This document shows, piece by piece, positions 5,432-42,207 of a stretch of 64,000 nucleotides of DNA; position 1 is the first letter of the stretch, and each line of letters opens with the position of its first letter. Below the pieces are notes generated by a model that saw only the letters and a program-made list of their open reading frames with translations, ran no database searches and was not told the DNA's origin. The position numbers were made by a program, and so were the translations under genes. The stretch covers positions 5,836 through 69,835 of the forward strand of contig DATEGA010000252.1 in NCBI GenBank assembly GCA_035280345.1, in the 5' to 3' direction. This stretch comes from a bacterium (GTDB lineage: Bacteria; Sysuimicrobiota; Sysuimicrobiia; Sysuimicrobiales; Segetimicrobiaceae).

Positions 5432-6499
5432 ATGCTGATTGTCCGTGCACCGGTGCGGATTAGCTTCGCGGGCGGCGGCACCGATTTGGAGAGTTACTAT
5501 CGGCCGTTTGGCGGACTGGTCGTCAGCGCCGCGATCGACAAGTATTTCTACGTCTTTGTGACCGTCAATAAAGGCGAAAGTATCCAGATCATGTCGTCCG
5601 ATTTCCGCACGTTTTACCGGCAGGATGCAGATCAGGAGATGTTGTGGGACGGTGACTTGGCGCTCCCTCGCGCCATCCTCAACTACTTCAACGTCCACGA
5701 GGGGCTCTCGATGTTCCTGGCGTCGCAGGTGCCGCCAGGCACCGGTCTCGGTTCTTCCAGCACCGTCGCGGTCGCCGTGATCAAGGCCCTCACGAGCCTG
5801 CAGGGTCTCGCGTTATCGAAGCAGGAGATCGCCGAGTTGGCCTGTTCGATCGAAATCGAGAAACTCGGCATGCCAATCGGCAAACAAGATCAGTATGCGG
5901 CGGCGTTTGGGGGCATCAACGGGATCGCCTTTGAACACGACGGTGTCTCGGTCCATCCTCTCAGGCTTTCGCCCGATGTCCTGGAGCGACTCGAGCGCAA
6001 TGTGCTCCTATTCTATACCGGCGTGGCCCGGGATGCCGCGAAGGTACTCACCGAACAAAATCAGGCAACGCTCAACCGTTCCGCCGGGGTGATCGAGTCC
6101 TTGCACGCGATCAAGGGAATGGCGATGGAGGTCGGTCAGTGCTTTGAGCGGGGGGACCTCCGAAAGCTCGGTGAACTGCTGCACACATCGTGGGAGTACA
6201 AGAAAAAGCTCTCGGCCGGGATCACCAATGCGTGGATCGACGAGTGCTACGAGACGGCGCGCTGTCACGGGGCAATCGGCGGCAAGATAACCGGGGCCGG
6301 AGGTGGCGGCTTCCTCATGCTCTACTGCGAAGAGCGAGGAGCGCCCGCGGTGACCGAGGCTCTGGGCCGGCTCGGCCTCAAGCGAATGGACTTCTCCGTG
6401 GACTTCGATGGCGCGAAGATCCTGGTGAACAACGGCATTCCGTTTCAAATGCTGGGGCAGGGAAGGCGCGCCGGCGAGGTCGCCGTTGTGAACGGGTGA
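5432..6499 (+). CDS. GHMP-family sugar kinase, HddA-like (D-glycero-D-manno-heptose 7-phosphate kinase-like)
   Basis: MLIVRAPVRISFAGGGTDL N-terminus and the PPGTGLGSSSTVAVAV GHMP ATP-binding motif. RBS ggagacggagagg upstream. Confidence 0.6.
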   Translation: MLIVRAPVRISFAGGGTDLESYYRPFGGLVVSAAIDKYFYVFVTVNKGESIQIMSSDFRTFYRQDADQEMLWDGDLALPRAILNYFNVHEGLSMFLASQVPPGTGLGSSSTVAVAVIKALTSLQGLALSKQEIAELACSIEIEKLGMPIGKQDQYAAAFGGINGIAFEHDGVSVHPLRLSPDVLERLERNVLLFYTGVARDAAKVLTEQNQATLNRSAGVIESLHAIKGMAMEVGQCFERGDLRKLGELLHTSWEYKKKLSAGITNAWIDECYETARCHGAIGGKITGAGGGGFLMLYCEERGAPAVTEALGRLGLKRMDFSVDFDGAKILVNNGIPFQMLGQGRRAGEVAVVNG

Positions 6500-7875
6500 T
6501 GCCCAGGGCCGATCGGCACGTCATGATCTTGGGGTTGATCGGGGTCGACGTGCTGGCGCTGACGATCGCCGGGGCTCTGACCTCAAAGCTTCTGCCGTTC
6601 GATATCCTGGCAGCGGGCCGGGGAGCGTCCCAGTTTCTGCTGGTGGCGGCGCTTCCGGTGGCCATCGGTTTGTTTGCAGCCAATCGCCTCTATGTCCTCG
6701 ACGAGCTTCTGGAGGGGCCCATCGAGTACGGGCGGATCGTCTATGCCTGTACGCTCACGACGTTCGGGCTGAGCGTAATCGGGTTCTGGTGGCGTGATGT
6801 GGATGCGCTCGCCCCGTCGCGCCGGCTCGTGACGGCTCTCTGGTTTCTCTCGATTCTGGCCGCGGTGACGGGGCGGTTCATCGTGCGCCGCGTCGTGCGG
6901 GCGCTGCGCCGCCGAGGGTTGCTGACGACGCGCACGCTGATCGTCGGCCTCGGCGCCCAGGGGTTGTCGTTGTGCCGGCACTTTCGCGAGCTCCGGCACG
7001 CGGGGGTTGAGGTCGTCGGGTTCATCGACGACTTCCTCCCGGCAGGGACGCCCGTGGTCGACGGACTCAAGGTACTTGGCCCTCCGAGCGCTCTGCCGGC
7101 GGTCTTGCGTGAGACCGGCGCCGGCGACGTGATCGTGGTGCCGACGGCTATGGCCTGGGAGAGTTTCCACGACCTCATTCGTGATACCGCCACGTTGAAT
7201 GGGCACACCGTGCGCCTCACGCCGGGATTCCGCGATATCCTGGCCGCGAACATAAAAGTGCATCATTTCGGATCGATGCCGTTGCTGACGATCGAGCGGG
7301 CGCGTATTACAGGGCTCGAGGCCGTCCTGAAACGGCTCGTGGACTACACGCTTGCCGCCGTGCTGCTGCTATTCAGCCTGCCGATCCTTGCTACCGTGGC
7401 GATAGTGCTTCGCGCCAAGGGAGTGCGGGTATTTTCTCGCGTCGCCACGATTGGACGTGGCGGGCGAACCTTTCAGGCCGTGGTGTTCAACGCATCGGAC
7501 CCCGACAATGGCTTCCAGCGCGCAGCGGTGCGGCTCGGGCTCGACAAGGTCGTACAGCTCTGGAACGTGCTGTGCGGCCGGATGAGCATCGTCGGTCCTC
7601 GCCCCGTCCCTGTTCATCGGCGCCGTGAATATGAGCGCTGGGTGCCGAACCTGTTGACCGTCAAGCCGGGTGTCACCGGACCGTGGGCGCTGACCGGCGT
7701 CCGTCTCCCTTTGGACGACGAGATGCAGGCGACCCTGTTCTACATCCGCAACTACACCATTTGGCTGGATCTCGAAATTGTCGTTCGATCTATCCTCCGG
7801 GTGCTCCGCGGTCGCGCGGTCCCCGACCACACGAGTGAGCCGGTCCGCCGTGACGCCGTCACAGTACATCAGTAG
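6499..7875 (+). CDS. undecaprenyl-phosphate sugar phosphotransferase, WbaP/WcaJ-like (large polytopic priming PGT with CoA-binding-like domain)
   Basis: TGATG overlap with the upstream gene. N-terminal TM helices, a Rossmann-like LIVGLGAQG segment, and a C-terminal bacterial sugar-transferase motif IVGPRPVPVHRRREYERWVPNLLTVKPGVTGPWAL. Confidence 0.75.
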   Translation: MPRADRHVMILGLIGVDVLALTIAGALTSKLLPFDILAAGRGASQFLLVAALPVAIGLFAANRLYVLDELLEGPIEYGRIVYACTLTTFGLSVIGFWWRDVDALAPSRRLVTALWFLSILAAVTGRFIVRRVVRALRRRGLLTTRTLIVGLGAQGLSLCRHFRELRHAGVEVVGFIDDFLPAGTPVVDGLKVLGPPSALPAVLRETGAGDVIVVPTAMAWESFHDLIRDTATLNGHTVRLTPGFRDILAANIKVHHFGSMPLLTIERARITGLEAVLKRLVDYTLAAVLLLFSLPILATVAIVLRAKGVRVFSRVATIGRGGRTFQAVVFNASDPDNGFQRAAVRLGLDKVVQLWNVLCGRMSIVGPRPVPVHRRREYERWVPNLLTVKPGVTGPWALTGVRLPLDDEMQATLFYIRNYTIWLDLEIVVRSILRVLRGRAVPDHTSEPVRRDAVTVHQ

Positions 7876-8464
7876 CCTGCGCGAGGCGCTCGCCAAGGTG
7901 TCGGTTTCGGACCTTCGCGAGATCGAAGACGTGCTCTTCGACGCGTGGCGCCACGGGCGCACGATCTTCATCGCCGGGAACGGTGGCAGCTCGTCAACCG
8001 CCTCGCATTGGACCAACGACCTCAACAAGGGAGCGATTACCGCGGGGGGACGTCGATTTCGCGCGATGGCGCTCACCGACAACGTGCCGCTGATTACCGC
8101 GTGGGGCAATGACACCGCGTACGAGCGGATCTTCGTCGAGCAAATGACGAACTTCATCCAGCCTCACGATGTGTTCGTCGCCATCAGCGGCAGCGGAAAC
8201 TCGCCCAATATCCTTGCGGCCGTGCAATGCGCGCGGAGCGCGGGCGCCGTCACGGTCGGCCTGACCGGCCGCGACGGTGGCCAACTGCGGGTCCTCGCCG
8301 ACCACGCAGTGGTGGTCCCGGCACACTACATGGAGATCATCGAAGACGTCCATTTGGCGCTCTCGCACCTGCTCTGCACGGCGCTGCGGGCGAGGATTGC
8401 CGCACCGATGCCCGCGGGCGAGGCGATCCCCGTCACGCAAACGATGTCCCGACCGGAGGCGTGA
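7835..8464 (+). CDS. SIS-domain phosphoheptose isomerase, GmhA-like (GTG start at 7835 or 7850)
   Basis: TIFIAGNGGSSSTASHWTNDL ... VFVAISGSGNSPNIL ... VGLTGRDGG match the GmhA SIS motifs. Confidence 0.65.
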   Translation: MSRSAVTPSQYISSLREALAKVSVSDLREIEDVLFDAWRHGRTIFIAGNGGSSSTASHWTNDLNKGAITAGGRRFRAMALTDNVPLITAWGNDTAYERIFVEQMTNFIQPHDVFVAISGSGNSPNILAAVQCARSAGAVTVGLTGRDGGQLRVLADHAVVVPAHYMEIIEDVHLALSHLLCTALRARIAAPMPAGEAIPVTQTMSRPEA

Positions 8465-8466
8465 TC

Positions 8467-9225
8467 ATGAAAGCCATCCCAGACCCTGTCATCAACAGCA
8501 GCGAGCCCGATTCGAGCTTGGGGCACATGCCGGACGGCCGGTGGGCGTTTGACGCCAACGTGACGCAGGTGTTCGACGATATGCTCCGGCGATCGATCCC
8601 GCAATACGATGTCATGCGCCAGGCCGTGTACGATGTCGGATGCAAGTTCATCAAGCGCGATACGGATATCGTCGATCTGGGGTGCGCCAGGGGCGAGGCG
8701 CTGGCCCCATTCGTCGACCGATTCGGCGCGCAGAACCGCTACCTGGGTGTCGAGGTGAGTGAGCCGATGCTCGCCGCGACACGGCAGCGCTACGCCGGCC
8801 TTATCAACACCGGTGTCATGCGGGTGCAAAACAGCGATCTCCGGTACACGTATCCGCTCGCCAAGGCGAGTCTCACCCTGTCCATCTTCACCGTCCAGTT
8901 CGTGCCGATCGAGTACCGGCCGCGGCTGCTCGCCGACGTGTTCGCGTCGACCGTTCCCGGCGGTGCGATTGTCCTGGCGGAAAAGATCATCGGATCCACC
9001 GGCGCTAACGATCGCCTCTTTGTCGATCTCTACTACGATATGAAGCGCCGCAACGGCTACAGCCAGGACGAAATAGACCGCAAGCGGTTCTCGCTGGAGG
9101 GCGTGCTCGTGCCCGTCACCGCGAAGTGGAACGAAGATCTCCTTCGTGAAGCGGGTTTTTCGCGGGTTGAGAATTTCTGGCGGTGGATGAATTTTGGCGC
9201 GTGGCTGGGCGTCAAGCCTGCGTGA
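8467..9225 (+). CDS. CmoA-family SAM-dependent enzyme (carboxy-S-adenosyl-L-methionine synthase homolog)
   Basis: ATGA overlap with gmhA-like stop. Colinear similarity to E. coli CmoA across the whole length: WAFDANVTQVFDDMLRRSIPQYD, DLGCARGEA, FTVQF...RPRLL, PGGAIVLAEK, MKRRNGYSQDEIDRKRFSLE, AGFSRVENFWRWMNFGAWLGVK. Confidence 0.6.
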   Translation: MKAIPDPVINSSEPDSSLGHMPDGRWAFDANVTQVFDDMLRRSIPQYDVMRQAVYDVGCKFIKRDTDIVDLGCARGEALAPFVDRFGAQNRYLGVEVSEPMLAATRQRYAGLINTGVMRVQNSDLRYTYPLAKASLTLSIFTVQFVPIEYRPRLLADVFASTVPGGAIVLAEKIIGSTGANDRLFVDLYYDMKRRNGYSQDEIDRKRFSLEGVLVPVTAKWNEDLLREAGFSRVENFWRWMNFGAWLGVKPA

Positions 9226-9241
9226 GCGTTGCGTACCGGGC

Positions 9242-10141
9242 GTGAGCAACAGGAGCGCGACGGTCATCGAACAGCCTGGGTGGCAGCCCGCAGTCGCTTC
9301 AACAGGATCGCGGGCCGAAGAAGTACCCGCGATCCGGGTCGAGCCGTCGAAGGGGTGGGCTGCGCTCCAGCTCCGCGAGGCGTGGAAGTCTCGAGAGCTC
9401 TTGTATTTTCTCGTTTGGCGGGATGTCACAGTCCGCTACAAGCAGACGGTGTTTGGGGTGCTGTGGGCGGTTTTCCAGCCGTTGTTTGGGACAGTGGTCT
9501 TCACCCTGTTTTTCGGCCGGTTGGCCAAGATGCCCTCGGACGGCGTGCCGTACCCGTTGTTCGCTTATGCCGCATTGGTGCCGTGGACGTTTTTTGCCAA
9601 CGGCTTGAACCAGATTTCCAACAGCCTCGTACGCGATGCCAATCTCATCACGAAAGTGTACGTACCGCGGCTTCTGATCCCGTTCGCGGCCGCCGTCGCT
9701 GGGTTGGTCGATTTTCTCGTGGCATTTGTTATTCTGCTCGGCATGATGGTCCTCTACCGAACGCCGCCGACGGCGAACATTATCTTCCTACCGTTCCTTG
9801 CCCTGCTGGCGCTGGCGACGTCGATCAGTGTGGGTCTCTGGTTGTCGGCGCTGAACGTGCAGTTCCGCGATGTGCGATACGTCCTGCCGTTCGTGGTGCA
9901 GGCATGGCTCTTCGCCACACCGATCGTATATCCGAGCAGTCTACTGCCGGCGCGGTGGCGCCTGGTGTACGGGCTGAATCCGATGGTCGGCGTAGTAGAA
10001 GGCTTTCGATGGGCCCTCTTGGGGACGCATACCCGTCCCGGCGGCATGATTATCGTTTCAGCGCTCACGGTAGTTGGCCTGTTGATCGGCGGGATGATCT
10101 ACTTCCGGCGGACGGAAAGTAAGTTCGCCGACGTGGTCTAG
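9242..10141 (+). CDS. ABC-2 type polysaccharide exporter permease (Wzm/KpsM-like)
   Basis: LREAWKSRELLYFLVWRDVTVRYKQTVFGVLWAVFQPLF is the ABC-2 N-terminal signature, followed by six hydrophobic segments. The start (GTG near 9242) is uncertain. Confidence 0.75.
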   Translation: MSNRSATVIEQPGWQPAVASTGSRAEEVPAIRVEPSKGWAALQLREAWKSRELLYFLVWRDVTVRYKQTVFGVLWAVFQPLFGTVVFTLFFGRLAKMPSDGVPYPLFAYAALVPWTFFANGLNQISNSLVRDANLITKVYVPRLLIPFAAAVAGLVDFLVAFVILLGMMVLYRTPPTANIIFLPFLALLALATSISVGLWLSALNVQFRDVRYVLPFVVQAWLFATPIVYPSSLLPARWRLVYGLNPMVGVVEGFRWALLGTHTRPGGMIIVSALTVVGLLIGGMIYFRRTESKFADVV

Positions 10142-28436: not shown

Positions 28437-29579
28437 ATGGCTACCGTTCGGCAGAGGGGAAGCGCTTCGGTTACGGCGCAGATTCCGCTGGTGGACCTAA
28501 AGGCCCAGTATCGCAGCATCAGGCCCGAGATCGATGCCGCGATCCAGCGGGTCGTGGGTGATGCGAGGTTCATTCTTGGCGGGGAAGTGGATGCGTTTGA
28601 AGAGATGTTCGCGCGTTATGTCGGCGCGAAAGGCGCCGTCGGGTTGGCCTCGGGCACCGCGGCTTTGCACCTAGCGTTCATAGCCTGCGGCGTGCGGCCC
28701 GGCGACGAAATTATCACGTCAGCCCACACGTTCATCGCGGCCGCGGAAGCCATTTCGCACGCCGGCGCCCGCCCTGTGTTCGTGGATATCGACCCTCGTA
28801 CGTATACGATGGATCCTCAGCAGGTTGAAGAAGCCATCACACCCCGTACGAAGGCAATTGTTCCGGTCCACCTGTATGGGCAACCGGCAGAGATGGACCC
28901 TCTCGTGCAGATCGCGCGGGCCCGCGGCGTGTTCCTGATCGAGGACGCCGCTCAGGCTCACGGGGCGGAATACCGCGGTCGACGATGCGGTGGCATCGGG
29001 CACTTGGCGTGTTTCAGTTTCTATCCGGGGAAGAATCTCGGTGCCTACGGCGACGCCGGTGCCGTGACCGGCAATGACGAGACGCTGCTGAACAGAGTGC
29101 GAAAGTTGCGGGATCACGGTCGCGTGGACAAGTACGAGCATGACGAGATAGGGTACGGCGAGCGGATGGATGCACTTCAGGGTGCCGTACTGGCGGCCAA
29201 ACTACCGCGATTGGACGCCTGGACAGAAGCACGGCGGGCCCACGCGGGCCTCTACAACACGCTGCTCGCCGAATCCGCGGCGGTGATGCCCTTCGAGTCC
29301 CCCGACGCGCGTCACGTGTATCACTTGTACGTGATCCGGGTGCGCAACCGCGACGCCGTTTTGGCCGAGCTCCGACGCAGAGGCATCGGCGCAGGAATCC
29401 ACTATCCGATCCCGGTGCACCGACAGCCCGCCTACATGAAGCTTGGATACGATACCGTGTCTCTCCCGAATACCGAAAACGCGGCGAGCGAGGTTCTGTC
29501 GCTGCCGATGTATCCGGAACTTGTTCCCGACCAAATCTCGTTCGTCGCGCAGGCCGTAAAGGAACTGGCCGCGCGGTGA
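28437..29579 (+). CDS. DegT/DnrJ/EryC1/StrS-family PLP-dependent sugar aminotransferase
   Basis: IPLVDLKAQYRSIRPEIDAAIQRV...FEEMFARYVGAKGAVGLASGTAALHLA...FSFYPGKNLGAYGDAG is typical of WbpE/ArnB-type enzymes. Confidence 0.8.
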   Translation: MATVRQRGSASVTAQIPLVDLKAQYRSIRPEIDAAIQRVVGDARFILGGEVDAFEEMFARYVGAKGAVGLASGTAALHLAFIACGVRPGDEIITSAHTFIAAAEAISHAGARPVFVDIDPRTYTMDPQQVEEAITPRTKAIVPVHLYGQPAEMDPLVQIARARGVFLIEDAAQAHGAEYRGRRCGGIGHLACFSFYPGKNLGAYGDAGAVTGNDETLLNRVRKLRDHGRVDKYEHDEIGYGERMDALQGAVLAAKLPRLDAWTEARRAHAGLYNTLLAESAAVMPFESPDARHVYHLYVIRVRNRDAVLAELRRRGIGAGIHYPIPVHRQPAYMKLGYDTVSLPNTENAASEVLSLPMYPELVPDQISFVAQAVKELAAR

Positions 29580-30691
29580 TCAACGTCGCCGTGGTGGGAC
29601 TGGGATATTGGGGACCAAATCTGGTCCGGAACCTCGCGTCTCTCGGCGAGGTGAACATCTCGGCTCTGTGCGACATGTACGCCGCCCGTGCGGAGACCGT
29701 TGCGGCGCGCTATTGTCCTCGGGCCACGATCGTCAAGGATCATGCGGATCTCTTGGATCACAAAGAGATTGACGCGGTCATCGTGGCGACACCGATTCAA
29801 ACGCATTATGCGGTCGCCAGTGCGTTTCTCGGTGCCGGCAAGCACGTATTTGTCGAGAAGCCCCTGGCGCGCACGGGGTCGGAGTGCCGTACGCTCATCA
29901 ATTTGGCCGAGCGATATCGTCGCGTGCTCATGGTGGACCATGTGTTCGAGTACAGCGCCGCCGTTCAACGGATAAAAGCCTACCTCGATCAGCGGGAACT
30001 GGGCAAGCTCTTGCACGTCTATTCGCAGCGCCTCAACCTCGGCCGGATTCAGACCGAAACCAGCGCATTGTGGAGTTTTGGCCCCCATGATCTCTCCATC
30101 CTGAACTACTGGTTGGGGCACGAGCCGCTGGCGATTGCAGCACGTGGATTCGCATATATCACCACCGGCGCCGAGGATGTGGTGTTTCTCTCGCTCGAAT
30201 ACCCCGGCGGGATCAACGCGCATCTCCATCTCGGCTGGCTCGACCCGCGAAAGGTCCGTCTGATGACACTGGTAGGGACCAAGAAAATGCTGGTGTATGA
30301 TGACGTGAATGAGGATGCGAGGATTCAATTGTACGACAAGGGGGTCGTGCAGTTGGACGATTACCTCGAGGCGCCTGAGTCGTTCCCTGAGTTTTTGCCA
30401 CGTCTCCGGGTGGGAGACGTTCTGATCCCGGCGGTGTCATCTTCCGAGCCGCTCCAGGCGGCCTGCCGCCACTTCGTCGACTGCGTGCGTGCCGGGCAAC
30501 GGCCGCGCACCGACGGCGCCTCCGGACTTCGCGTGGTGCGCGTGTTGGAGGCGGCGGAGGAATCACTGCGACAAGGGGGGCGAACCATCGCCCTGCACCC
30601 CGAAGCAGAAATCACCGGCTCCGCAAAGGGGTCTGACGGCTTGGATCAGACGCTGCACACTGCCGACACCGCGCGAGGCGGCGCCAGTTAG
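29576..30691 (+). CDS. Gfo/Idh/MocA-family NAD(P)-dependent sugar oxidoreductase (WbpB-like partner of the aminotransferase)
   Basis: MINVAVVGLGYWGPNLVRNL Rossmann N-terminus and a Gfo/Idh/MocA C-terminal domain. ATGA-type overlap with degT. Confidence 0.7.
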   Translation: MINVAVVGLGYWGPNLVRNLASLGEVNISALCDMYAARAETVAARYCPRATIVKDHADLLDHKEIDAVIVATPIQTHYAVASAFLGAGKHVFVEKPLARTGSECRTLINLAERYRRVLMVDHVFEYSAAVQRIKAYLDQRELGKLLHVYSQRLNLGRIQTETSALWSFGPHDLSILNYWLGHEPLAIAARGFAYITTGAEDVVFLSLEYPGGINAHLHLGWLDPRKVRLMTLVGTKKMLVYDDVNEDARIQLYDKGVVQLDDYLEAPESFPEFLPRLRVGDVLIPAVSSSEPLQAACRHFVDCVRAGQRPRTDGASGLRVVRVLEAAEESLRQGGRTIALHPEAEITGSAKGSDGLDQTLHTADTARGGAS

Positions 30692-30726
30692 TTTGGCGCC
30701 GTAGGGCCGGACGGTAGTCGACGGCG

Positions 30727-32031
30727 ATGGCATATCCCGGCTGCGACTCGGTCACAAACGGCGCGCCCGCGAGGCCACTCGTGAGTGTTATTATTCCAAC
30801 GCGCAACCGCGCGGAGTCTCTGCGACGCGCGCTCGAGTCGATTCGTGCGCAGCAGGGTCGCGGGGACATTTTCGATCTCGAGATTATCGTGGTCGATGAT
30901 GCATCTTCAGACGATACTCCACTAATTGTGCGATCCCAAGGGGATGTCCACTATATCCGGCTGCCGGAGCGACGCGGTGTTGCCGCGGCCACGAATGAGG
31001 CATTGCGGAACAGTCATGGATGCTACCTCACCTTTCTCGATGACGACGACGAGTGGCTGCCACATAAGCTCTCTGTTCAGGTCCCGGCGCTAAACGGGCA
31101 CCCCGAGGCCGAAATCGTGTACGGCCAGAGCCTTATACGGAGCGAAGGCCGGGAAGGGGTGTACCCGGACGCCGAGACTGCGCCGTCCGGTTGGGTATTT
31201 CTTGAGATGCTCATGCGAAATTTTGCCGGTCACCATGCGTCCCTCCTGGCGCGGCGCAGCGCGTTCGAAAAGGCCGGATATTTCGATGAAACCCTGATGT
31301 CAAACATCGATTACGAGATGTCACTCCGGCTCGCGTTTCACGTCCGTTTCCTCTTCGTGCCGGGCGCGGTCGATATCTACAATCTCTCGCCACGTGGACT
31401 GTGGCTGACCCGCGCAGCTAGTGGCATGGGGCGGGCAGACTTGGCGCGCGTGATTGAAAGCGCACTCCGATTGCTGCCGGACTCCGCGCAGTACGATGAG
31501 GTGAAACGTACCGCAAGGGCACGGGCGGTGCTGAACGCGGTGTACTCGTTGCTTTCCGCCGGCGAGTCCGCGCAGGCTCGGACGACGCTGGTCACGGCGC
31601 TGCAATCTCACCCCTGGGCTCTTCGCACCAACTGGGCCAGGGACACCCTGGCTCATGCGGCCGGCAGGCTCGCGGTTGGGTCCACGTCGCCGGTATCGAC
31701 CACGGCTCAACTCTGTGCTGAACTTCGATCCAAGATCCCTGTACGAACACTCCGGGGATGGTGGGAGCTACGACGTGCGTTCGGTTTGATATGGGCCAGT
31801 GTGGCCTTGTCTTTGAGTGACGGAGGCCGCTCCCAGGACAAACAGTCGGCTTACGCGGCCGTGGTGGCCGTGGGGATGACGCCGTCGCTCCTTGGGCGCC
31901 CAGGACTGCTACGGTTGATCGTGCGAGGTGTCCTCGGCCGCCGAGCCGACGCCGCGTGCGCGGGCCTGTACGCGCGGTTCCGGAAATTCAGGACGACACG
32001 CGTCTTCGACGGCATACGGGGTCAGGTATGA
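30727..32031 (+). CDS. GT2 glycosyltransferase with C-terminal extension
   Basis: LVSVIIPTRNRAESLRRALESIRAQ...VVDDASSDDT...FLDDDDEWLPHKL (GT-A DxD). Confidence 0.7.
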   Translation: MAYPGCDSVTNGAPARPLVSVIIPTRNRAESLRRALESIRAQQGRGDIFDLEIIVVDDASSDDTPLIVRSQGDVHYIRLPERRGVAAATNEALRNSHGCYLTFLDDDDEWLPHKLSVQVPALNGHPEAEIVYGQSLIRSEGREGVYPDAETAPSGWVFLEMLMRNFAGHHASLLARRSAFEKAGYFDETLMSNIDYEMSLRLAFHVRFLFVPGAVDIYNLSPRGLWLTRAASGMGRADLARVIESALRLLPDSAQYDEVKRTARARAVLNAVYSLLSAGESAQARTTLVTALQSHPWALRTNWARDTLAHAAGRLAVGSTSPVSTTAQLCAELRSKIPVRTLRGWWELRRAFGLIWASVALSLSDGGRSQDKQSAYAAVVAVGMTPSLLGRPGLLRLIVRGVLGRRADAACAGLYARFRKFRTTRVFDGIRGQV

Positions 32032-32909
32032 CCGGAGCAGCCTACCCCGCTGGGCAGCGTGTCCGTCGGGCGTCAGGTGGACGCCTCCTTCGCGACGGCA
32101 TTGAACGGTTTCTTCGCCGAGTGGCGACTCGAATTGGACGCTCGGCACCGATGGACGTCTACTGTCACTATGCGCCTGGTGGATGGGTTGTCGAGAGCCC
32201 GTCCGGGAGCGCGTGGAACGAAGACGGGGTTGTTTCCGCCCAATCGGCGCACTGGCCGGCCATCGTGCGGAACCTCGAGGGTACAGGTCCGTTGGGCGTC
32301 GCTCACTTGCCAGACCGGCTGACGCGCGAACATTTCGGCGACCATAACGTGATGATGTCGTACGGGTACGTCCTAGCCCGGGCTGCCCGAAACAAGGAAC
32401 GGCTCAGTGTTCTGGATTGGGGCGGGAGCCTTGGTCACTACTTTTTGTACAGCCAGGTGCTTCTACCGGAGGTAACGTTTGATTACCACTGCTACGAGGT
32501 GCCCTCGTTGAGTCGCGCCGGAAGACAACTGCAACCGGAGGTTCATTTCCACGAAGGCGCCGACACGCTCGACGGAGCGATCTTTGATTTGGTCGTCTGT
32601 AGTGGGACGTTGTATTATCTCGAGCGCTGGCAGGAGGTAGCAGGCCTGCTGGCGCGACGCGCGGGCGAATATCTTTACATCACGAGGGTCATGACGGTGG
32701 AGCACGTGCCCTCCTTTGTGGTCTTGCAGCGCAGCAGGCACTACGGGACGCAATTTCCTTCTTGGTCGCTGAACCGCCGAGAGTTGATCGGGTGTGTCGA
32801 AGGACAGGGTATGGAGCTTCTCCGTGAATTCGTGTTCGACGAAACGCGATTTGTAGATCATGCCCCCGAGCAAAGCGCATGTCGGGGTTTCCTGTTCCGC
32901 CGCGCATGA
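32028..32909 (+). CDS. putative SAM-dependent methyltransferase (LIC12133/TIGR04325-like)
   Basis: ATGA overlap with the GT2 stop. VLDWGGSLGHYF ... FDLVVCSGTLYYLERWQE are MTase-fold motifs I and post-II. Confidence 0.45.
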   Translation: MTGAAYPAGQRVRRASGGRLLRDGIERFLRRVATRIGRSAPMDVYCHYAPGGWVVESPSGSAWNEDGVVSAQSAHWPAIVRNLEGTGPLGVAHLPDRLTREHFGDHNVMMSYGYVLARAARNKERLSVLDWGGSLGHYFLYSQVLLPEVTFDYHCYEVPSLSRAGRQLQPEVHFHEGADTLDGAIFDLVVCSGTLYYLERWQEVAGLLARRAGEYLYITRVMTVEHVPSFVVLQRSRHYGTQFPSWSLNRRELIGCVEGQGMELLREFVFDETRFVDHAPEQSACRGFLFRRA

Positions 32910-33823
32910 ATCAAGTCAGGGCGTCGACTATTAATGCGGGTGAGTTGATGATGGAGGACGGATCAGCGCGCCGCGAGGTTACGCGGCTCATTCGGCACCA
33001 TTGGAACTATCGGGCGGCTCGGTTCGACGAGGATCCCGAGCACGGGCTGCACAGCGAAGCCCAGCGGGCGGCATGGCTGCAGCTCCTGTCACGGCTGGCC
33101 GGTGACACGCCGCGGCGTGTTTTGGATGCCGGCTGCGGGACTGGGGTGTTGGCGACCCTCTTCGCGGAATTGGGACACACGGTCACCGGCGTCGATCTTG
33201 CTCCTCTGATGATCGAGCGTGCGCGACAAAAGGCTAAGGATGCCGGAGTAGTGGTTCAGTACCGTTTGGAGAATGTTGACAAACTCAGCGATCTCGACGG
33301 CAGCTACGATCTCGTCGTGGCCCGTCACGTCGTGTGGACGCTTCCTGATCCAGCGGGGACCGTGAAGGAGTGGCTGCGAGTACTGCGACCGGGTGGCTGT
33401 CTGGCGATCATCGAAGGCCAGTGGGCGGCGAATCGGCCGGCCGCGGTCATTCCGCTGCCGCGTAGAGTCCTGGCGAGGTTTCGGCGCCTTCCAGACAGAC
33501 TCTTGTATTATGCAATGCGGCCTTCCCAGTGGAGTCATCTTCTCGATCGATTCCGCGCCTCATTGCGGCGCGGCGTCGGAGGCATCGTAGCATGTGCTGC
33601 ACAGCCGGCCGAGTGGAAAGCGGCCTTGAGCCGTTACCGAGAGCGCAAGTACGCCGAGACACACACTCAGTTGCCACTATACGGTGGGCCGTTGGCGGAC
33701 CAGATCACTGCGCTGCTTGCGGCCCAGGGACTCAGAGATGTGAGGATCGAGCCCCTCATGGATGCCGCGCTGTGGGGTGAGGCGGAGATGTTTCAGCGCT
33801 ATCTGGCCACGGGAAAGCGCTAA
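32906..33823 (+). CDS. class I SAM-dependent methyltransferase
   Basis: ATGA overlap. VLDAGCGTGVLATLFAELGHTVTGVDLAPLMIERAR (motif I) and YDLVVARHVVWTLPD...LRVLRPGGCLAI (motifs II/III). Confidence 0.7.
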   Translation: MNQVRASTINAGELMMEDGSARREVTRLIRHHWNYRAARFDEDPEHGLHSEAQRAAWLQLLSRLAGDTPRRVLDAGCGTGVLATLFAELGHTVTGVDLAPLMIERARQKAKDAGVVVQYRLENVDKLSDLDGSYDLVVARHVVWTLPDPAGTVKEWLRVLRPGGCLAIIEGQWAANRPAAVIPLPRRVLARFRRLPDRLLYYAMRPSQWSHLLDRFRASLRRGVGGIVACAAQPAEWKAALSRYRERKYAETHTQLPLYGGPLADQITALLAAQGLRDVRIEPLMDAALWGEAEMFQRYLATGKR

Positions 33824-33851
33824 ACCTCGAGAATCGCGGGCATTTCTGAGG

Positions 33852-34658
33852 ATGTTGGGTTCCCGCGCCGTCCCTCCGACGCCCGGTTGGTGGCGCGACG
33901 GCCTAAGGCTTTATTGGTTGTCGTCGGCGTTCGGAGCGAGGGCGAGAATCCTCCCGCGGTATGACTTTTACCGGTTTGTCGAGCATGGACTGATCTACGG
34001 ACAAATCGTGCGGGACGCGCAAGAGGGCAGCCGTATCCTCGACGTTGGCACCGAGCGCTCCTTGTTGCCGCTCGCCCTCGCCCTCCGCCGGCGATATGTG
34101 ATATACATTACCGACATTCTGCCCCGCATGCTGGCCTACCACCGGGCGAAGATCCAGAAGGTCGGGCTCCAAGACGATGCCCGCGAGGCGAGGATCATCG
34201 TCGACTGTCAGGACGCCTGCCGAATGTCCTTTGTCGATGGATCCTTCGATTGGGTGACCTGCGTCTCCATGGTCAACGGGCTGCGCGACACGGGGGATCG
34301 CGACGCGATGGGAGAAATCGGCCGCGTGCTGCGTCCCGGCGGGCGAGCGATCGTCACCGTGCCGTACGGGCCGTACGCAGAGCGAGAGCCTCCGTTGAGG
34401 CCGTATTTTACGCGCGCGTACGACGACGCAGCGATCGACCGCCGGCTGCTCGAGCCGAGCGGGCTTCGCGAGGAGGCCCGCTGGTATTTCGGAGACCAAG
34501 GCACATGGTCACGGATGTATTGGGGCGACATGCCGCGGCCGGTGCGAGAGTTTGCCTGGGTCACGACACCGTTGTGGACGCGTTTGTCGGTTAGGGTCGA
34601 CAGGACGCCGTTCCCTAACTCCGGGGGCGTCATTCTGGTCGCTCGGAAGCCCGGCTGA
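33852..34658 (+). CDS. class I SAM-dependent methyltransferase
   Basis: ILDVGTERSLLPLALA ... FVDGSFDWVTCVSMVNGL ... GRVLRPGGRAIVTVPYG. Confidence 0.6.
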   Translation: MLGSRAVPPTPGWWRDGLRLYWLSSAFGARARILPRYDFYRFVEHGLIYGQIVRDAQEGSRILDVGTERSLLPLALALRRRYVIYITDILPRMLAYHRAKIQKVGLQDDAREARIIVDCQDACRMSFVDGSFDWVTCVSMVNGLRDTGDRDAMGEIGRVLRPGGRAIVTVPYGPYAEREPPLRPYFTRAYDDAAIDRRLLEPSGLREEARWYFGDQGTWSRMYWGDMPRPVREFAWVTTPLWTRLSVRVDRTPFPNSGGVILVARKPG

Positions 34659-34806: not shown

Positions 34807-36030
34807 ATGGACCTGATCGAGCCTATGGCACCGAAGAAGGTACTGCAGTTTGTCGACGGCTCGCCGTTTGGCGGCGTTGAGCAAAGCGCACTGTCTTTGT
34901 TGGCCGGCCTGGACCGCCGTCATTGGCAACCCGTTTTGCTGCACTATTCGTGGCCCGACGCGGCGCTGCTACTCCAGAGGGCGAAAGACCTGGATACAGG
35001 AGTGCGTGGGGTACGGCGGGCGCGCGTCCACGATCCGCTCTCGACCGTCGCTGAAGTCCCGGCCTTCTTACGTGCATTGCGAAGGGAGAGACCGGCGGTC
35101 TTGCACGTGCACGTCAATTGGCCCTTGTCGTCGCTGGCCGGACTCATTGCCGGGCATTTGGCCGGTGTGCCCGCCGTTGTCGCGACCGTGCATCTCTTCC
35201 CAGCCGTTTCACTGATGCCGCCGGATGGCAGTATCCCAACGCTGCCAGGGTGTCCCCGGTTTGAGTGGGGGTTGCAGCGTTGGGCGTCCTCCTACGCTAA
35301 TTGCTTCGTCGCCGTATCATCCGAGATCGCGGAGCGTCTTCATCAAGACTTTCGCGTGCCCAGGGACAAAATCCACATCGTGCCCAATGGTATTTCTCCC
35401 TCCCATTTCGACGTGCCGCCCGACGCGGCGCTGCGTGCGATACTGAACGGAGGGACGCATCGGGCGGTGGTTTTGACGACCGCCCGTCTCGCTAGGGAGA
35501 AGGGGCATCGGTATCTCTTGGAAGCGGCGGCACGAGTTCCGGACGCAATGTTTGTTCTTGTCGGCGACGGACCCGAGCGAACGGCGCTCGAGTCGCAGGC
35601 GCGGCAACTCGGGTTGAGTGAACGTGTAACCTTCCTCGGTTTTCGGCGAGACGTTCCGAGTTTGCTGGCCTGTTCTGATCTCGTGGTCCTTCCGTCTTTA
35701 TTCGAGGGCTTATCTGTCTCACTTTTGGAGGCCATGGCGGCCGGTAGAGCGGTCATCGCATCCGCCATAGCCGGCGTCACTGAGGTGGTGGTCCATGGAG
35801 AAACCGGCTTAGTCGTCCCGCCAAAAGACTCATCCGCGTTGGCCGCCGCCATACGAACGTTGTTGGCGGACCCGACTCTGGCCACACGCCTCGGGGCGGC
35901 CGGGAAGACTCGTGCCGCCAAACTGTTCTCCGCCACCGCGATGTCGGAGTCCGTGATGCAGATTTACGAACGAGCGCTGCGTGCCCGCAACGGAGCATCT
36001 AGTCGACCAGGGTCTTATGCAGGAAGATAG
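34807..36030 (+). CDS. GT4 glycosyltransferase
   Basis: VVLPSLFEGLSVSLLEAMAAGRAVIASAIAGVTEVVVHGETGLVV. Confidence 0.7.
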   Translation: MDLIEPMAPKKVLQFVDGSPFGGVEQSALSLLAGLDRRHWQPVLLHYSWPDAALLLQRAKDLDTGVRGVRRARVHDPLSTVAEVPAFLRALRRERPAVLHVHVNWPLSSLAGLIAGHLAGVPAVVATVHLFPAVSLMPPDGSIPTLPGCPRFEWGLQRWASSYANCFVAVSSEIAERLHQDFRVPRDKIHIVPNGISPSHFDVPPDAALRAILNGGTHRAVVLTTARLAREKGHRYLLEAAARVPDAMFVLVGDGPERTALESQARQLGLSERVTFLGFRRDVPSLLACSDLVVLPSLFEGLSVSLLEAMAAGRAVIASAIAGVTEVVVHGETGLVVPPKDSSALAAAIRTLLADPTLATRLGAAGKTRAAKLFSATAMSESVMQIYERALRARNGASSRPGSYAGR

Positions 36031-37657
36031 CCGTAACGCACTGCTGCGCAGGGCCGATTGGCGATTCCTGCTGCCGGATCCCCGGCCGTCCAAGACCACG
36101 TGCTTCGCCGATGGTCCGTTGCGGAGCGCGACCGAGCTAATTTCGCAGTCGGTCGTCGATGCGCCGCCGGTCCCGCGGGGCGATTCTGATCTGGCCGTCG
36201 CGGTCGACGCGGACGACAGGACGCTCCGCGCCGCCTTCGCCAGTCTTCGTCCCGGCGGTTCGTGCTTCACGGAGTGGTACTCCCCATTAACCGGCGGTGC
36301 GAAGCGCATTCGGCGGCGGCTGCGAGCGGCCGGCTTTCAGGATGTCACCTGCTACTGGTGCTGGCCGTCGCCCGCCCGCTCGCGCCCTCAGTACTGGCTT
36401 CAACTCTCGGCGCCGGGGGCGTCCCGCTACTTTCTGCGCAGCCGATCCCCGGGCGGCGGCGCGATTCGCCGGTTCGTCCGGGCGGTCGTAAAGTACATCT
36501 GGCTCGTGTGTCAGCGGGTGGGGTTTCTCTTTCCCGTGTGCGCCGTCGCCCGCAAACCGGTACCGGTGCCGTCACGTGGCGGACCGGGCCCCGGTGTCTC
36601 GTCGCTGTCCGAACGTCGCGCGCCAATATGCGCATCACCCTTCATGGATGACCTTCGTGAGTTGACTCAGGCCGAATCTCAGACGCCGGACCGCGGTGCT
36701 TCGCCGCCCGTCTTCTCCCAGCTTGTTCTCACGATGGGACCCCGCAGTATTTCGAAAATTGTCACGCTGGTCTTCAGAGAACCCGACGATCGCCCGTGGC
36801 TGGCCGTCAAGATGCCGCGAGTGCCGGAGTCCGGCCCCGGGCTCATAAGAGAGGCGGCGACTCTTCAAGCTATTCGGGCGGAGTACGGGGATGGGCTGTC
36901 GTGGGCGCCGCGTGTGATATTCTGCCGCGAACGCTTCGGAACCGTCATCGTCGGCGAAACCGCCCTGGTTGGCCGGCTTCTGTCTACAATGCTCAGTCGC
37001 CGTAACTTTCGGGATTTCGCGCTACAGGTGACGGACTTGCTGGCTGAATTGGTGGCGTCATCGCAGCCCAAGGCGCGCACCGCCTGGTGGGATCGTTTGA
37101 TTGAGCCGGTCCTAAGCGATTTCAGCGAGTCGTTTTCGCAGGTCATAGACCCGGCCATGCTTCGCGACACGCGGGACGCTCTGACGACCTTGGACGCCCT
37201 TCCGCTGGTGTGTGAACAACGAGATCTCGCGCCCTGGAACATCCTCGTGACCCGAGACCGGCAGGTCGCGGCGCTTGATTGGGAGTCGGCGGAGTTGCGG
37301 GGGCTTCCGATCCTGGACCTCGTCTATTTTCTCACGTTCCTGAGTTTCTCGCTGAACCGCGCCATGTGCGGCGAGCGTCTGCGCACCTTCTACCGGACCA
37401 TTTGGGATCCGTCGACCTTCGCCGGTGGGGTGGTCCAGGAGTGCATGGTTCGCTACCTCGGCCGGGCGCGTCTTGATCGCGCCGCAATTGCCCCACTGCG
37501 GCTCTTAGTCTGGCTCATCCATTCGCGCTCCGAGTATCAACGCTTCGCGGCCGACGTTGCGGGGAAGCCCGGCCCGGAACTCCTGCGGCGCAGCATGTTC
37601 GTCGGCCTGTGGCAGGAAGAGTTACGGCGCGCGCCGCACCGTTCCGTCCCGTGTTGA
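36017..37657 (+). CDS. kinase-fold phosphotransferase (APH/choline-kinase-like) with a 200-aa N-terminal domain of unknown function; start uncertain
   Basis: QRDLAPWNILVTRDRQVAALDWESAEL resembles the Brenner catalytic-loop and D[FW]E metal-binding motifs of APH/ChoK-like kinases. Confidence 0.5.
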   Translation: MQEDSRNALLRRADWRFLLPDPRPSKTTCFADGPLRSATELISQSVVDAPPVPRGDSDLAVAVDADDRTLRAAFASLRPGGSCFTEWYSPLTGGAKRIRRRLRAAGFQDVTCYWCWPSPARSRPQYWLQLSAPGASRYFLRSRSPGGGAIRRFVRAVVKYIWLVCQRVGFLFPVCAVARKPVPVPSRGGPGPGVSSLSERRAPICASPFMDDLRELTQAESQTPDRGASPPVFSQLVLTMGPRSISKIVTLVFREPDDRPWLAVKMPRVPESGPGLIREAATLQAIRAEYGDGLSWAPRVIFCRERFGTVIVGETALVGRLLSTMLSRRNFRDFALQVTDLLAELVASSQPKARTAWWDRLIEPVLSDFSESFSQVIDPAMLRDTRDALTTLDALPLVCEQRDLAPWNILVTRDRQVAALDWESAELRGLPILDLVYFLTFLSFSLNRAMCGERLRTFYRTIWDPSTFAGGVVQECMVRYLGRARLDRAAIAPLRLLVWLIHSRSEYQRFAADVAGKPGPELLRRSMFVGLWQEELRRAPHRSVPC

Positions 37658-40209: not shown

Positions 40210-41440
40210 GATGCGGCCAATGCGCATTGTGTTTTCGTATCCGTGGCGGCTCGACGATCTTGGTGGCTCCCAGATCTCCGTCCCGCTGCTCGCGGAAGCA
40301 CTGGTCCGGCGTGGCCACCAGGTCGGCATCGTCGAGATGACGTCCGCGCCCTCGAGTAAGGTCGCGAAGGTCTTCAGCGGGCAGTTATGGACTGCGCCGA
40401 AGGTCTCTCCATCCAGCCACCCATGGCGGGGTGTGCGTTGCAGCGTCACGCAGGTTCGACAGACCCTGCGGAGCCTTAAGGCAGGCATCTGGGCGTGGCG
40501 AGGTGTACTTCACAGCATCGCCCATTTTCAGCAAGTGCTCCGGAGCTTTCAGGCGGACATCGTTTCCGTCCAATGCCCCTGGCGCCAGGCGCCGTCCGCG
40601 GTCGGGACACACCTCTTTCCGCATCACTGGCGGCTTGTGGTGACTGTGCGCGCGTCCGGTGACGTCCGCGCCAGTGCCGACGCGGACGCGTGGCTGCGAG
40701 TCTGGCAGCGGCACCTGTATGCGAGGGCCGACGCCGTGACACTGGTCAGCGACGCCCTTCGCCGGGAACTCGTCGCGCTCTACCCGTTTGCCGAGCGGCG
40801 CAGCCGCGTGATTTGCAACGGCCTTGATCCCTCCTGGTTCGCGCGGCCGGCCGGGTTGCTCCGGACGGCCGCGACGCGCTATGCGCTCTTCGTCGGCCGG
40901 TTAGACCAGAGTAAGGGCGTCGATGTGTTGCTGCATGCCTGGCAGCAAGTGCGCGCGCGCGCCGGCGGGGTCGCGCTGTGGCTCGCGGGTGATGGGCCGG
41001 AGGCAGGCAAGCTGAGCGAGCTATCTCAGCGATTGAACCTCGCGCCCGATGTGAAATTTTTGGGGCGCATCGCCCCCGATAGTCTACGCGCGCTGTATCG
41101 TGACGCCGAGCTGGTCGTCATCCCATCGCGAACCGAAGGGTCCTCGCGAGTGGCCCTCGAAGCCGGCGCGAGTGGTGCCCTCTGCGTGGCGACGTCCGTA
41201 GGAGGGATACCGGAGATCGTGGACCACACGGTGACCGGGTTCCTCGTGGACCCTGACTCGTCAAACGCGCTGGCGGCCGCCATTCTTCGAGCGCTCGAAC
41301 TGCCGGCGGCAGAGCGCGTCGCCATGAAGGCGGCTGCCCGCGGCAAAATTGCCGGACAATTTTCCCACGACCGCACCGCGGACGCGTTTGAGGAACTGTT
41401 TTGGGCGCTGCTCGCCGCGCCGAAAGGGCCGAGGCCGTGA
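40196..41440 (+). CDS. GT4 glycosyltransferase
   Basis: VIPSRTEGSSRVALEAGASGALCVATSVGGIPEIVDHTVTGFLVDPD. Confidence 0.7.
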   Translation: MAEREMRPMRIVFSYPWRLDDLGGSQISVPLLAEALVRRGHQVGIVEMTSAPSSKVAKVFSGQLWTAPKVSPSSHPWRGVRCSVTQVRQTLRSLKAGIWAWRGVLHSIAHFQQVLRSFQADIVSVQCPWRQAPSAVGTHLFPHHWRLVVTVRASGDVRASADADAWLRVWQRHLYARADAVTLVSDALRRELVALYPFAERRSRVICNGLDPSWFARPAGLLRTAATRYALFVGRLDQSKGVDVLLHAWQQVRARAGGVALWLAGDGPEAGKLSELSQRLNLAPDVKFLGRIAPDSLRALYRDAELVVIPSRTEGSSRVALEAGASGALCVATSVGGIPEIVDHTVTGFLVDPDSSNALAAAILRALELPAAERVAMKAAARGKIAGQFSHDRTADAFEELFWALLAAPKGPRP

Positions 41441-42207
41441 ACGGCGGCACCGCTGCGCGGTCGACTCCCGTGATCGACTTCACAAGACAGGCACTGAGAC
41501 GCGTGCGACGCGCGGCAGCCGGCCGCTTGGCGCGCGCGATTACGCACGTCTCGACGACGGAGCCCGTGGCCGCGCTGACATTTGACGACGGCCCGGACCC
41601 TGTGCACACGTCCCGGCTGCTGGATCTGCTCGAGAAGTACCGGGTCCGCGCGACCTTCTTCATGATTGGTCAAGCCGCCCTGAAGCATCCCGACATCGTG
41701 CGCCGCGTTGCCGACGGCGGACACAGCATCGGCAACCACACGTGGAGCCACCGGTCCTTTCCGTCGATTTCCACTCACGAGCGGTGCGCAGAGATTCGGG
41801 CGTGCGAACGCGCGCTTGCTCCCTATAGCCTCAGACTCTTCCGTCCGCCGTACGGCGATCAAAGTGTCGGGTCGTGGCTTGACGCGACACGACTGCGCTA
41901 TGCCGTCGTGACCTGGAATGCGACTGGGCACGACTGGCACGGCCGCGATGCGGCTTGGATCGTGGAGCAGGTCATGAGCCGGTTCCGTCCGGGCAGCATC
42001 ATCGGACTCCACGACGGGTTGTTTGACGCCAGCAGCGAGGACTGCCTGGACCGTGGGCCGACGCTGAGTGCGGTGGAGATCCTGCTCGCCCGCTTGGGCG
42101 GCGCGTTTCGTTTCGTCACCGTCCCCGAACTCCTCCGGCATGGCCGGCCCGTGCGTGCAGCCTGGCTTCAGGATGGCACATCAGGGCGGCGAGACGGTCC
42201 GGAATGA
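41437..42207 (+). CDS. polysaccharide deacetylase (CE4 / NodB homology domain)
   Basis: ALTFDDGPDPVHTSRLLDLLEKYRVRATFFMIGQ...GHSIGNHTWSHRSF...LFRPPYG matches NodB motifs 1-3. Confidence 0.75.
   Translation: MNGGTAARSTPVIDFTRQALRRVRRAAAGRLARAITHVSTTEPVAALTFDDGPDPVHTSRLLDLLEKYRVRATFFMIGQAALKHPDIVRRVADGGHSIGNHTWSHRSFPSISTHERCAEIRACERALAPYSLRLFRPPYGDQSVGSWLDATRLRYAVVTWNATGHDWHGRDAAWIVEQVMSRFRPGSIIGLHDGLFDASSEDCLDRGPTLSAVEILLARLGGAFRFVTVPELLRHGRPVRAAWLQDGTSGRRDGPE

Follow-up and report, generated by a model that had tools for sequence, protein, structure and literature searches.

The 64-kb window analyzed here, that is, the whole 64,000-nucleotide stretch of contig DATEGA010000252.1, contains a polysaccharide locus in which one gene (8467-9225) encodes a homolog of CmoA, the synthase that makes carboxy-S-adenosyl-methionine (Cx-SAM) from S-adenosylmethionine (SAM) and prephenate. 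The interpretation that we favor, by a modest degree, is that this protein is a functional Cx-SAM synthase feeding an enzyme of the locus with a methyltransferase (MTase) fold, most likely a TIGR04325-like protein (32028-32909), which would carboxymethylate a sugar. Homology to CmoA, retention of cofactor-binding residues, purifying selection, the lack of cmoB nearby, and a recurrent gene association were all observed; function, including the identities of the transferase and the acceptor, we infer from sequence, structure prediction, and gene association. The two genes at the center of the argument are as follows.

8467 to 9225, forward strand: CmoA-type carboxy-SAM synthase homolog, 252 aa, HKX19302.1, recognized by sequence and fold matches
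32028 to 32909, forward strand: TIGR04325-like class I MTase-fold protein, 293-aa form, HKX19321.1, proposed Cx-SAM-dependent carboxymethyltransferase

The open reading frame (ORF) at 8467-9225 is a real gene. Pairwise comparisons with five orthologous metagenomic copies gave ratios of nonsynonymous to synonymous substitution rates (dN/dS) of 0.08-0.14, indicating purifying selection. The NCBI annotation of HKX19302.1 reads only "methyltransferase domain-containing protein", and a Pfam scan returned generic methyltransferase domains only; the top NCBIfam match is CmoA (TIGR00740). Residues 24-250 align with Haemophilus influenzae YecO/CmoA (1im8, E 7.9e-37), the structures of Escherichia coli CmoA are also matched (4gek, E 1.8e-29; 4iwn, E 4.5e-27), and identity to the CmoA structures is 30-33%. 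When the AlphaFold2 (AF2) model of the protein (pLDDT 81.5) was used in Foldseek, the top six matches were CmoA chains (1im8, 4iwn, and 4gek) with target-normalized TM-scores of 0.79-0.82, and the next were CysG and BelI, true methyltransferases with the CmoA fold, at 19-21% identity and E values of about 1e-5. The full-length colinearity with CmoA claimed from the sequence alone was borne out by the 1im8 and 4gek alignments across residues 24-250 and by the C-terminal segments, KRRNGYSQDEIDRKR and NFGAWLGVK. Both segments are present, and the NFG segment departs from the pattern quoted for it in having G for A.

In CmoA, Arg199 is the sole side chain in contact with the carboxylate of Cx-SAM, with which it forms a salt bridge (PMC3663124; PMC4482062). 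Its equivalent is kept in the window protein, within DRKRFSLEG, and the neighboring Lys198 is invariant in the alignment. Other cofactor contacts identified by alignment to E. coli CmoA are kept as well, namely Glu164, Tyr39, Asp62, Gly64, Asp117, and Phe137. These features suggest that the protein would act as a Cx-SAM synthase.

The case for the TIGR04325-like protein as the consumer comes from gene neighborhoods (related loci carry L numbers). Orthologs of the window cmoA at 75-92% identity occur on at least eight contigs in two glycan-locus arrangements. In one (the window, L001, L002, L095, L145, and L146), the gene order is kinase, Bac_transf, SIS, cmoA, wzm, and wzt. In the other (L093, L094, and L166), cmoA is divergent from DegT, Gfo, and GT2 genes with a convergent methyltransferase gene beyond them, and this DegT-Gfo-GT2-methyltransferase block is the block found at 28437-32909 in the window. 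The remaining genes of the block, and two that follow it, are listed here.

28437 to 29579, forward strand: DegT/DnrJ/EryC1 sugar aminotransferase; adjoins the CmoA gene in L093, L094, and L166 and is present in L030, L110, L111, and L169
29576 to 30691, forward strand: Gfo/Idh/MocA oxidoreductase; best match UDP-GlcNAc 3-dehydrogenase, below cut-off; syntenic in L093 and L166
30727 to 32031, forward strand: GT2 glycosyltransferase; its TGA stop overlaps the next ATG (ATGA, 32028-32031)
32906 to 33823, forward strand: Methyltransf_11 methyltransferase, ATGA-coupled to the TIGR04325-like gene
33762 to 34658, forward strand: second Methyltransf_11 methyltransferase of the same operon, from domain scans

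HKX19321.1 is called by NCBI from 32151 and named TIGR04325 family; the 32028-32909 protein scores 79.8 bits against TIGR04325, for which the cut-off is 80. ATG 32028 was taken as the start because of a conserved N-terminal extension and a 293-aa gene call. The family alignment contains invariant Arg59, Arg179, Arg225, Arg245, and His96. The ATGA overlaps of this gene are real on both sides, with the GT2 gene at 32028-32031 and with the Methyltransf_11 gene at 32906-32909, and the adjacency to Methyltransf_11 is kept in L165 (84% identity) and L163 (52%). A GT2 gene adjoins the CmoA/MTase pair in L030/L110, L093, L166, L168, L169, and L170.

In L093 and L166, a TIGR04325-like homolog accompanies a CmoA gene of the window type. 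L030/L110/L111 (a Gemmatimonadales metagenome-assembled genome (MAG) and two metagenome contigs) carry a CmoA-family member 58% identical to the window protein, followed by a GT2 gene, a TIGR04325-like homolog (39% identity, E 1.6e-57), an epimerase, and DegT, and a further TIGR04325-like homolog (56% identity) is found on the 77-kb contig of L001/L163. The association was also examined in reverse, using eight contigs retrieved via the TIGR04325-like methyltransferase and not via CmoA; these were picked for their length. A CmoA homolog is present on seven of the eight and is directly adjacent on five. In L167-L171, it adjoins the TIGR04325-like gene (53-60% identical) with gaps of 16-43 bp, and the CmoA proteins of these loci belong to a different, E. 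coli-like lineage that is 35-38% identical to the window protein. CmoA of the window type lies 4 kb from the TIGR04325-like gene in L166 and about 35 kb from it in L163; L165 is a 6-kb fragment with the TIGR04325-like gene at the contig edge and is uninformative on pairing. That two unrelated CmoA lineages accompany one and the same clade of methyltransferases is the best evidence at hand for a Cx-SAM requirement of the TIGR04325-like enzyme.

Relatives of the CmoA homolog are numerous, with 2,794 in the protein database at E<=1e-10 and a dense group at about 60% identity. Neighbor clustering covered 83 related genomic loci, in which identity to the window protein is 47-87% (mostly 52-62%). 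Roughly two thirds of these loci are phage or prophage, with a terminase-like, portal-like, and ParB-like gene set, and most of the nearest relatives (52-65% identity) come from phages or prophages. Directly upstream of the CmoA gene, the phage loci encode a ParB_N-methyltransferase-like fusion (37 loci) or a C5 DNA methyltransferase (12 loci). Natural DNA carboxymethyltransferases of the CmoX type are marked by an SPPC motif and Arg350, criteria taken from PMC12783734. Each of the 12 C5 enzymes is an SpCmoX homolog (36-46% identity for the near full-length copies) and contains the CmoX Arg signature GRAVPP, and SPPC was found in all nine for which the N-terminal part was recovered. The CmoA relatives paired with these enzymes are 58-65% identical to the window protein, and a distance tree nests the clade of the window protein in the CmoA-homolog family beside a phage copy linked to a CmoX-type gene. 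In nonphage loci, the adjoining MTase-fold genes belong to Methyltransf_2 (6), PEMT/ICMT (3), a 268-aa class I enzyme (2), and Methyltransf_23 (1). The simplest reading is that the lineage supplies Cx-SAM as a portable module and teams up with any transferase that requires it.

The described phage system (CmoA/CmoX/CmoY from Synechococcus phage S-B43, which makes 5-carboxymethylcytosine (5cxmC); PMC12783734) resembles the one proposed here in joining a non-tRNA CmoA homolog to a repurposed methyltransferase, and the closest nonorthologous relatives of the window protein adjoin C5-MTases with the SPPC and Arg350 signature. It differs in that the window has no C5-MTase, ParB, or terminase genes and offers a glycan-synthesis context rather than DNA; a sequence search of the window with SpCmoX found no homolog. 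SpCmoA itself is only 26% identical to the window protein and thus gives no direct validation, so that route was rejected; the link runs through the metagenomic phage copies beside CmoX-signature genes. That the window gene is a phage-derived passenger without a role in the locus would fit the phage and prophage origin of its nearest relatives outside its own clade, but this is extremely improbable given the strong purifying selection, the conservation of the gene (75-92% identity) across both glycan-locus arrangements and no fewer than eight contigs, and the lack of phage genes among the annotated neighbors of cmoA.

Further features of the family were noted. The ParB_N fusion (L015, L035, L051, L062, and 33 other loci; for example, L035:8015-9529) is about 505 aa long with an N-terminal ParB_N domain; its methyltransferase-like region is recognized from a motif-I-like sequence and has no Pfam match. 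In addition to the fusion, these loci encode a separate ParB-like protein and a 156-aa protein without a Pfam match. Possibly the fusion represents a second class of DNA-modifying enzyme that depends on Cx-SAM, and ParBc proteins of unknown role have been noted in CmoX contigs (PMC12783734). Small-molecule O-methyltransferases of the Methyltransf_2 type are paired with CmoA-family genes in L022, L025, L037, L038, L083, and L085 (for example, L025:10722-11831), as are PEMT/ICMT-type membrane methyltransferases in L004, L077, and L087 (for example, L087:3035-3799); these pairings suggest additional undescribed carboxymethylation targets, such as small molecules or lipids.

Several observations weigh against the favored interpretation. 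The equivalog cut-offs of both CmoA models were missed (TIGR00740, 161.3 bits against 193.3; NF011995, 109.2 against 285), which places the window protein in the CmoA superfamily but outside the curated tRNA-type equivalog. Four E. coli CmoA residues, Ser66, Asp89, Asn90, and Asn132, are Ala, Glu, Val, and Ile in the window protein, so the alignment of Cx-SAM-binding residues proposed in the sequence-only reading spoke for the synthase at Arg199 and most contacts and against it at these positions. The AF2 model of the TIGR04325-like protein (pLDDT 92.8) has a generic class I MTase fold and showed no Cx-SAM-specific feature. In the window, the CmoA and TIGR04325-like genes are 22.8 kb apart. 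L167 and L171 have the pair but no sugar genes, which means that in some cases the acceptor may be something other than a glycan. With regard to the replaced residues, the phage enzyme SpCmoA, which is active in experiments, likewise lacks Asn90 and Asn132, and Asn132 is also missing from the E. coli-like CmoA lineage 2; judged at the sequence level, the four changes appear compatible with activity.

The substituted contacts, together with the subthreshold equivalog score and the appearance of CysG and BelI as the next-best structural matches, would also suit an ordinary SAM-dependent methyltransferase with the CmoA fold, acting on a sugar or another substrate. We consider this distinctly improbable. 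Identity is 30-33% to CmoA against 19-21% to CysG and BelI, Arg199 is kept, and relatives 58-65% identical are paired with carboxymethyltransferases bearing the CmoX signature. Moreover, nothing would explain the consistent pairing with another MTase-fold gene if the protein were a plain methyltransferase.

A housekeeping role has to be weighed as well, in which the gene is a tRNA cmoA merely located in a glycan operon, with cmoB or an analogous enzyme elsewhere, or, as a variant, in which CmoA and the TIGR04325-like protein form a CmoB-independent system for cmo5U. E. coli CmoB (L092:3443-4414) was used as a tblastn query at E<1e-3 and gave no match in the 64-kb window or in about 150 related loci, in agreement with the absence of a cmoB-like partner noted from the sequence; a hidden cmoB in the window was rejected on the same result. 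Of the proposed search of the locus MTases for CmoB-like features, NCBIfam scans of the window MTases gave no CmoB match. This absence argues against the tRNA role because cmoA and cmoB are usually adjacent (PMC4482062). The missed CmoA equivalog cut-off, the operon position kept in two different glycan arrangements, the ATGA coupling of the partner MTase to GT2 with sugar-modifying genes on its flanks, and the otherwise phage-borne lineage point the same way. On the other side are the intact Cx-SAM-binding residues, the occurrence of the pair in L167 and L171 without nearby sugar genes, and three Granulosicoccaceae MAGs (L049, L063, and L067) in which the CmoA-family gene follows hisS and purA in a housekeeping-like context, with no obvious methyltransferase partner in the sequence examined. 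These three loci are the best hint that some family members have a core role such as tRNA modification. For the window gene, a tRNA function is quite unlikely.

The favored interpretation, a Cx-SAM synthase with a dedicated glycan-directed transferase, has parallels among the known synthase/transferase pairs, which are CmoA/CmoB, TglE/TglF, MccS/MccB-CTD, and CmoA/CmoX (PMC10491745, PMC12783734). The window protein shares with E. coli CmoA (4gek, 4iwn; also 1im8) the fold, a colinear alignment, the Arg199 clamp, most SAM contacts, and the presumed conversion of SAM and prephenate to Cx-SAM for a separate transferase. It differs in its identity of about 30-33%, its subequivalog score, the lack of cmoB nearby, and its place in a polysaccharide export and biosynthesis operon, and Cx-SAM would pass to a TIGR04325-like class I MTase, a protein absent from the top structural relatives of CmoB. 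That a Cx-SAM transferase need not resemble CmoB follows from the precedent of MccB-CTD (PMC10491745). As described, TglE/TglF (3-thiaglutamate) and MccS/MccB-CTD (microcin C-like antibiotic; PMC10491745) also combine a CmoA homolog with a dedicated transferase in a biosynthetic cluster. Their substrates are a peptide thiol and a nucleotide antibiotic, whereas the window carries nucleotide-sugar, glycosyltransferase, and ABC-exporter genes.

In the mechanism we propose, a CmoA lineage circulating in phages would have been recruited into a polysaccharide locus of the ABC-transporter type. The 8467-9225 protein would convert SAM and prephenate to Cx-SAM, which would be consumed by the TIGR04325-like protein rather than by CmoB, and the carboxymethyl group would be placed on a sugar made by the neighboring aminotransferase, 3-dehydrogenase-like, and GT2 genes. 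The acceptor would probably be an amine or hydroxyl of a 3-amino sugar, present in a nucleotide- or lipid-linked intermediate or in the finished glycan. DegT occurs in six settings (the window; L093; L094; L166; L030/L110/L111; and L169), where its partner is the UDP-GlcNAc 3-dehydrogenase-like oxidoreductase or, in L169, an FdtA-like isomerase. Dehydrogenase/aminotransferase routes lead to 3-amino sugars, and by analogy the DegT and dehydrogenase-like or FdtA-like genes suggest an amino sugar here. No acyltransferase was seen in the DegT-Gfo-GT2-methyltransferase block, so a free amine is a plausible nucleophile. By this analogy, N-carboxymethylation is at least as plausible as an O-carboxymethyl ether, with the O-linked form equally possible. 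The earlier proposal of a synthase feeding a locus MTase gains from Arg199, the CmoX-adjacent family, and the recurrent TIGR04325-like gene, and its O-carboxymethyl ether becomes one option only. The Methyltransf_11 protein (32906-33823) might, speculatively, modify the product further, for example by esterification, as CmoM does on cmo5U.

The recurrence of CmoA with TIGR04325-like and amino-sugar genes points to an undescribed carboxymethyl sugar modification. A more specific proposal, to which we give slightly less than even weight, is that a CmoA-type synthase and a TIGR04325-family enzyme form an undescribed two-gene cassette, widespread in uncultured soil and sediment bacteria, that carboxymethylates an amino sugar, N- or O-linked, probably as a UDP-GlcNAc3N-type intermediate. 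The carboxylate may then be methyl-esterified by the coupled Methyltransf_11 or, elsewhere, ligated by an adenylation-thiolation-thioesterase enzyme.

A protein of the latter type (854-900 aa) adjoins the CmoA/TIGR04325-like pair at L168:6349-9051 (reverse strand) and L169:3310-5874 (forward strand). By analogy with phage CmoY acting on 5cxmC, it might activate the newly added carboxylate so that an amide or ester can form.

It is also conceivable that the window protein makes Cx-SAM for one or more other MTase-fold proteins, such as the remaining locus MTases or the C-terminal domain of the following gene.

52396 to 54063, reverse strand: GT2-methyltransferase fusion, second candidate Cx-SAM user; C-terminal domain at residues ~282-547

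Two unrelated MAGs, L023 and L046, have stand-alone counterparts of the fusion domain (49-51% identity), each encoded directly downstream of a CmoA-family gene. In L001, L146, and L166, the gene directly after cmoA instead encodes a protein with 14 transmembrane segments and a spermidine-synthase-like domain, a fold that binds SAM derivatives, and from such varied adjoining genes the CmoA lineage evidently pairs with several transferases. However, only two loci back the fusion domain, compared with over ten for the TIGR04325-like gene; the fusion gene is 43 kb from cmoA on the opposite strand; and the membrane SpeE-like gene is absent from the window. A consumer other than the TIGR04325-like protein is therefore unlikely, if still worth keeping in view.

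The membrane protein found after cmoA is 836-842 aa long with about 14 hydrophobic segments (L001:10834-13362, L166:8728-11238, and L146:310-2700), and its central domain matches spermidine synthase (PF01564, E 1.4e-4; PDB 1uir, E 5.6e-5), a fold that binds a SAM derivative and transfers a nonmethyl alkyl group. As an obligate partner, the gene was rejected for the window, from which it is absent, and it is decayed in L093 (remnants at L093:5223-5626).

The uses of Cx-SAM described in the literature searched are tRNA cmo5U, 3-thiaglutamate, a microcin C-like antibiotic, and phage DNA 5-carboxymethylcytosine (PMC10491745, PMC12783734). The full-text searches found neither a glycan use of Cx-SAM nor a functional study of TIGR04325, and the literature searched held nothing relevant on natural O- or N-carboxymethyl sugars in O-antigens or capsules. 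The logic of a synthase with a dedicated transferase is known; novelty seems to lie in the family of the transferase, the class of substrate, and the recurring cassette. If the favored interpretation is correct, glycans would be the fifth substrate class for Cx-SAM and the first role of carboxy-SAM in glycobiology, the uncharacterized TIGR04325 family would gain a function, and bacterial surface polysaccharides would gain a new natural acidic substituent, with a bearing on charge, phage and immune recognition, and chain-end signaling to Wzt. It would also provide a natural orthogonal carboxymethyltransferase for bio-alkylation engineering, so far built on mutated methyltransferases (PMC7496830).

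The cmoA gene sits in an operon of closely spaced genes that run in one direction. It is preceded by Wza, a Wzc-like gene, an HddA-like GHMP kinase, Bac_transf, and a GmhA-like SIS gene, and it is followed by Wzm and then Wzt with a Wzt_C domain. The features nearest to cmoA are given below.

5432 to 6499, forward strand: HddA-like GHMP kinase (D-glycero-D-manno-heptose 7-phosphate kinase-like), below cut-off; syntenic with the CmoA gene in L001, L002, and L145
6500 to 7875, forward strand: polyprenyl-phosphate sugar transferase (CoA_binding_3 and Bac_transf); start approximate, with a mechanical ORF at 6190-7875 and an ortholog of 457 aa
7778 to 8464, forward strand: GmhA-like SIS-domain sugar-phosphate isomerase, directly upstream of cmoA; TIGR00441 at 115 bits against a cut-off of 209
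8455 to 8459, forward strand: GGAGG ribosome-binding site, inside the end of the upstream SIS gene and 7 nt before the ATG, read directly from the sequence
9242 to 10141, forward strand: Wzm ABC-2 permease, in frame 9194-10141; 73-76% identical to the ABC2_membrane genes of L001 and L146
10160 to 11470, forward strand: Wzt ABC ATPase with a C-terminal Wzt_C carbohydrate-binding domain, from domain scans

Domain scans confirmed the gmhA-like SIS gene and wzm as the flanking genes. The ATGA coupling that had been attributed to cmoA was not found at either junction: the SIS stop TGA (8462-8464) is followed by a 2-nt spacer before the cmoA ATG at 8467, and wzm probably starts at GTG 9242, about 16 nt past the cmoA stop. 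The wzm region contains two overlapping long ORFs in different frames, 9194-10141 and 9229-10122. Relatives are 73-76% identical in the 9194 frame and 37-39% in the 9229 frame. The 9229 ORF was accordingly rejected as wzm in favor of the conserved frame, and a gene call based on length would choose the wrong one. Upstream of wza, a 169-aa ORF at 1164-1673 has an ortholog in L001 that carries a NusG domain, and its product may be an operon-specific antiterminator of the RfaH/LoaP type for the long locus.

WbdD-type chain terminators work with Wzt carbohydrate-binding domains in the E. coli O8/O9a O-antigens. The window locus is similar in its ABC-transporter pathway, its Wzt_C domain, and its methyltransferase and kinase-like genes, and differs in having no demonstrated WbdD ortholog. 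Carboxymethylation as a terminal signal read by Wzt_C is a conjecture. One kinase-like gene of the locus is the following.

35981 to 37657, forward strand: 558-aa protein with a weak APH-type kinase domain, 85% identical to its L165 ortholog, which lies between GT4 and GT2 genes

In the Wzm/Wzt pathway, this protein might serve as a kinase that modifies the chain end in the manner of WbdD.

Farther downstream, the locus encodes many GT4 and GT2 proteins, the DegT aminotransferase, the Gfo/Idh/MocA oxidoreductase, several methyltransferases, a polysaccharide deacetylase, and PMT_2 (GT-C) proteins. The deacetylase gene overlaps a PMT_2 (GT-C, ArnT-like) gene by 4 bp within 41401-43763, and a second PMT/PMT_2 gene lies near this pair at 47380-48891 on the reverse strand. 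In the Arn pathway, an amino sugar is built on a lipid carrier and then moved outside the cytoplasm, and by analogy the combination of deacetylase, PMT_2, aminotransferase, and GT2 genes resembles the logic of that pathway.

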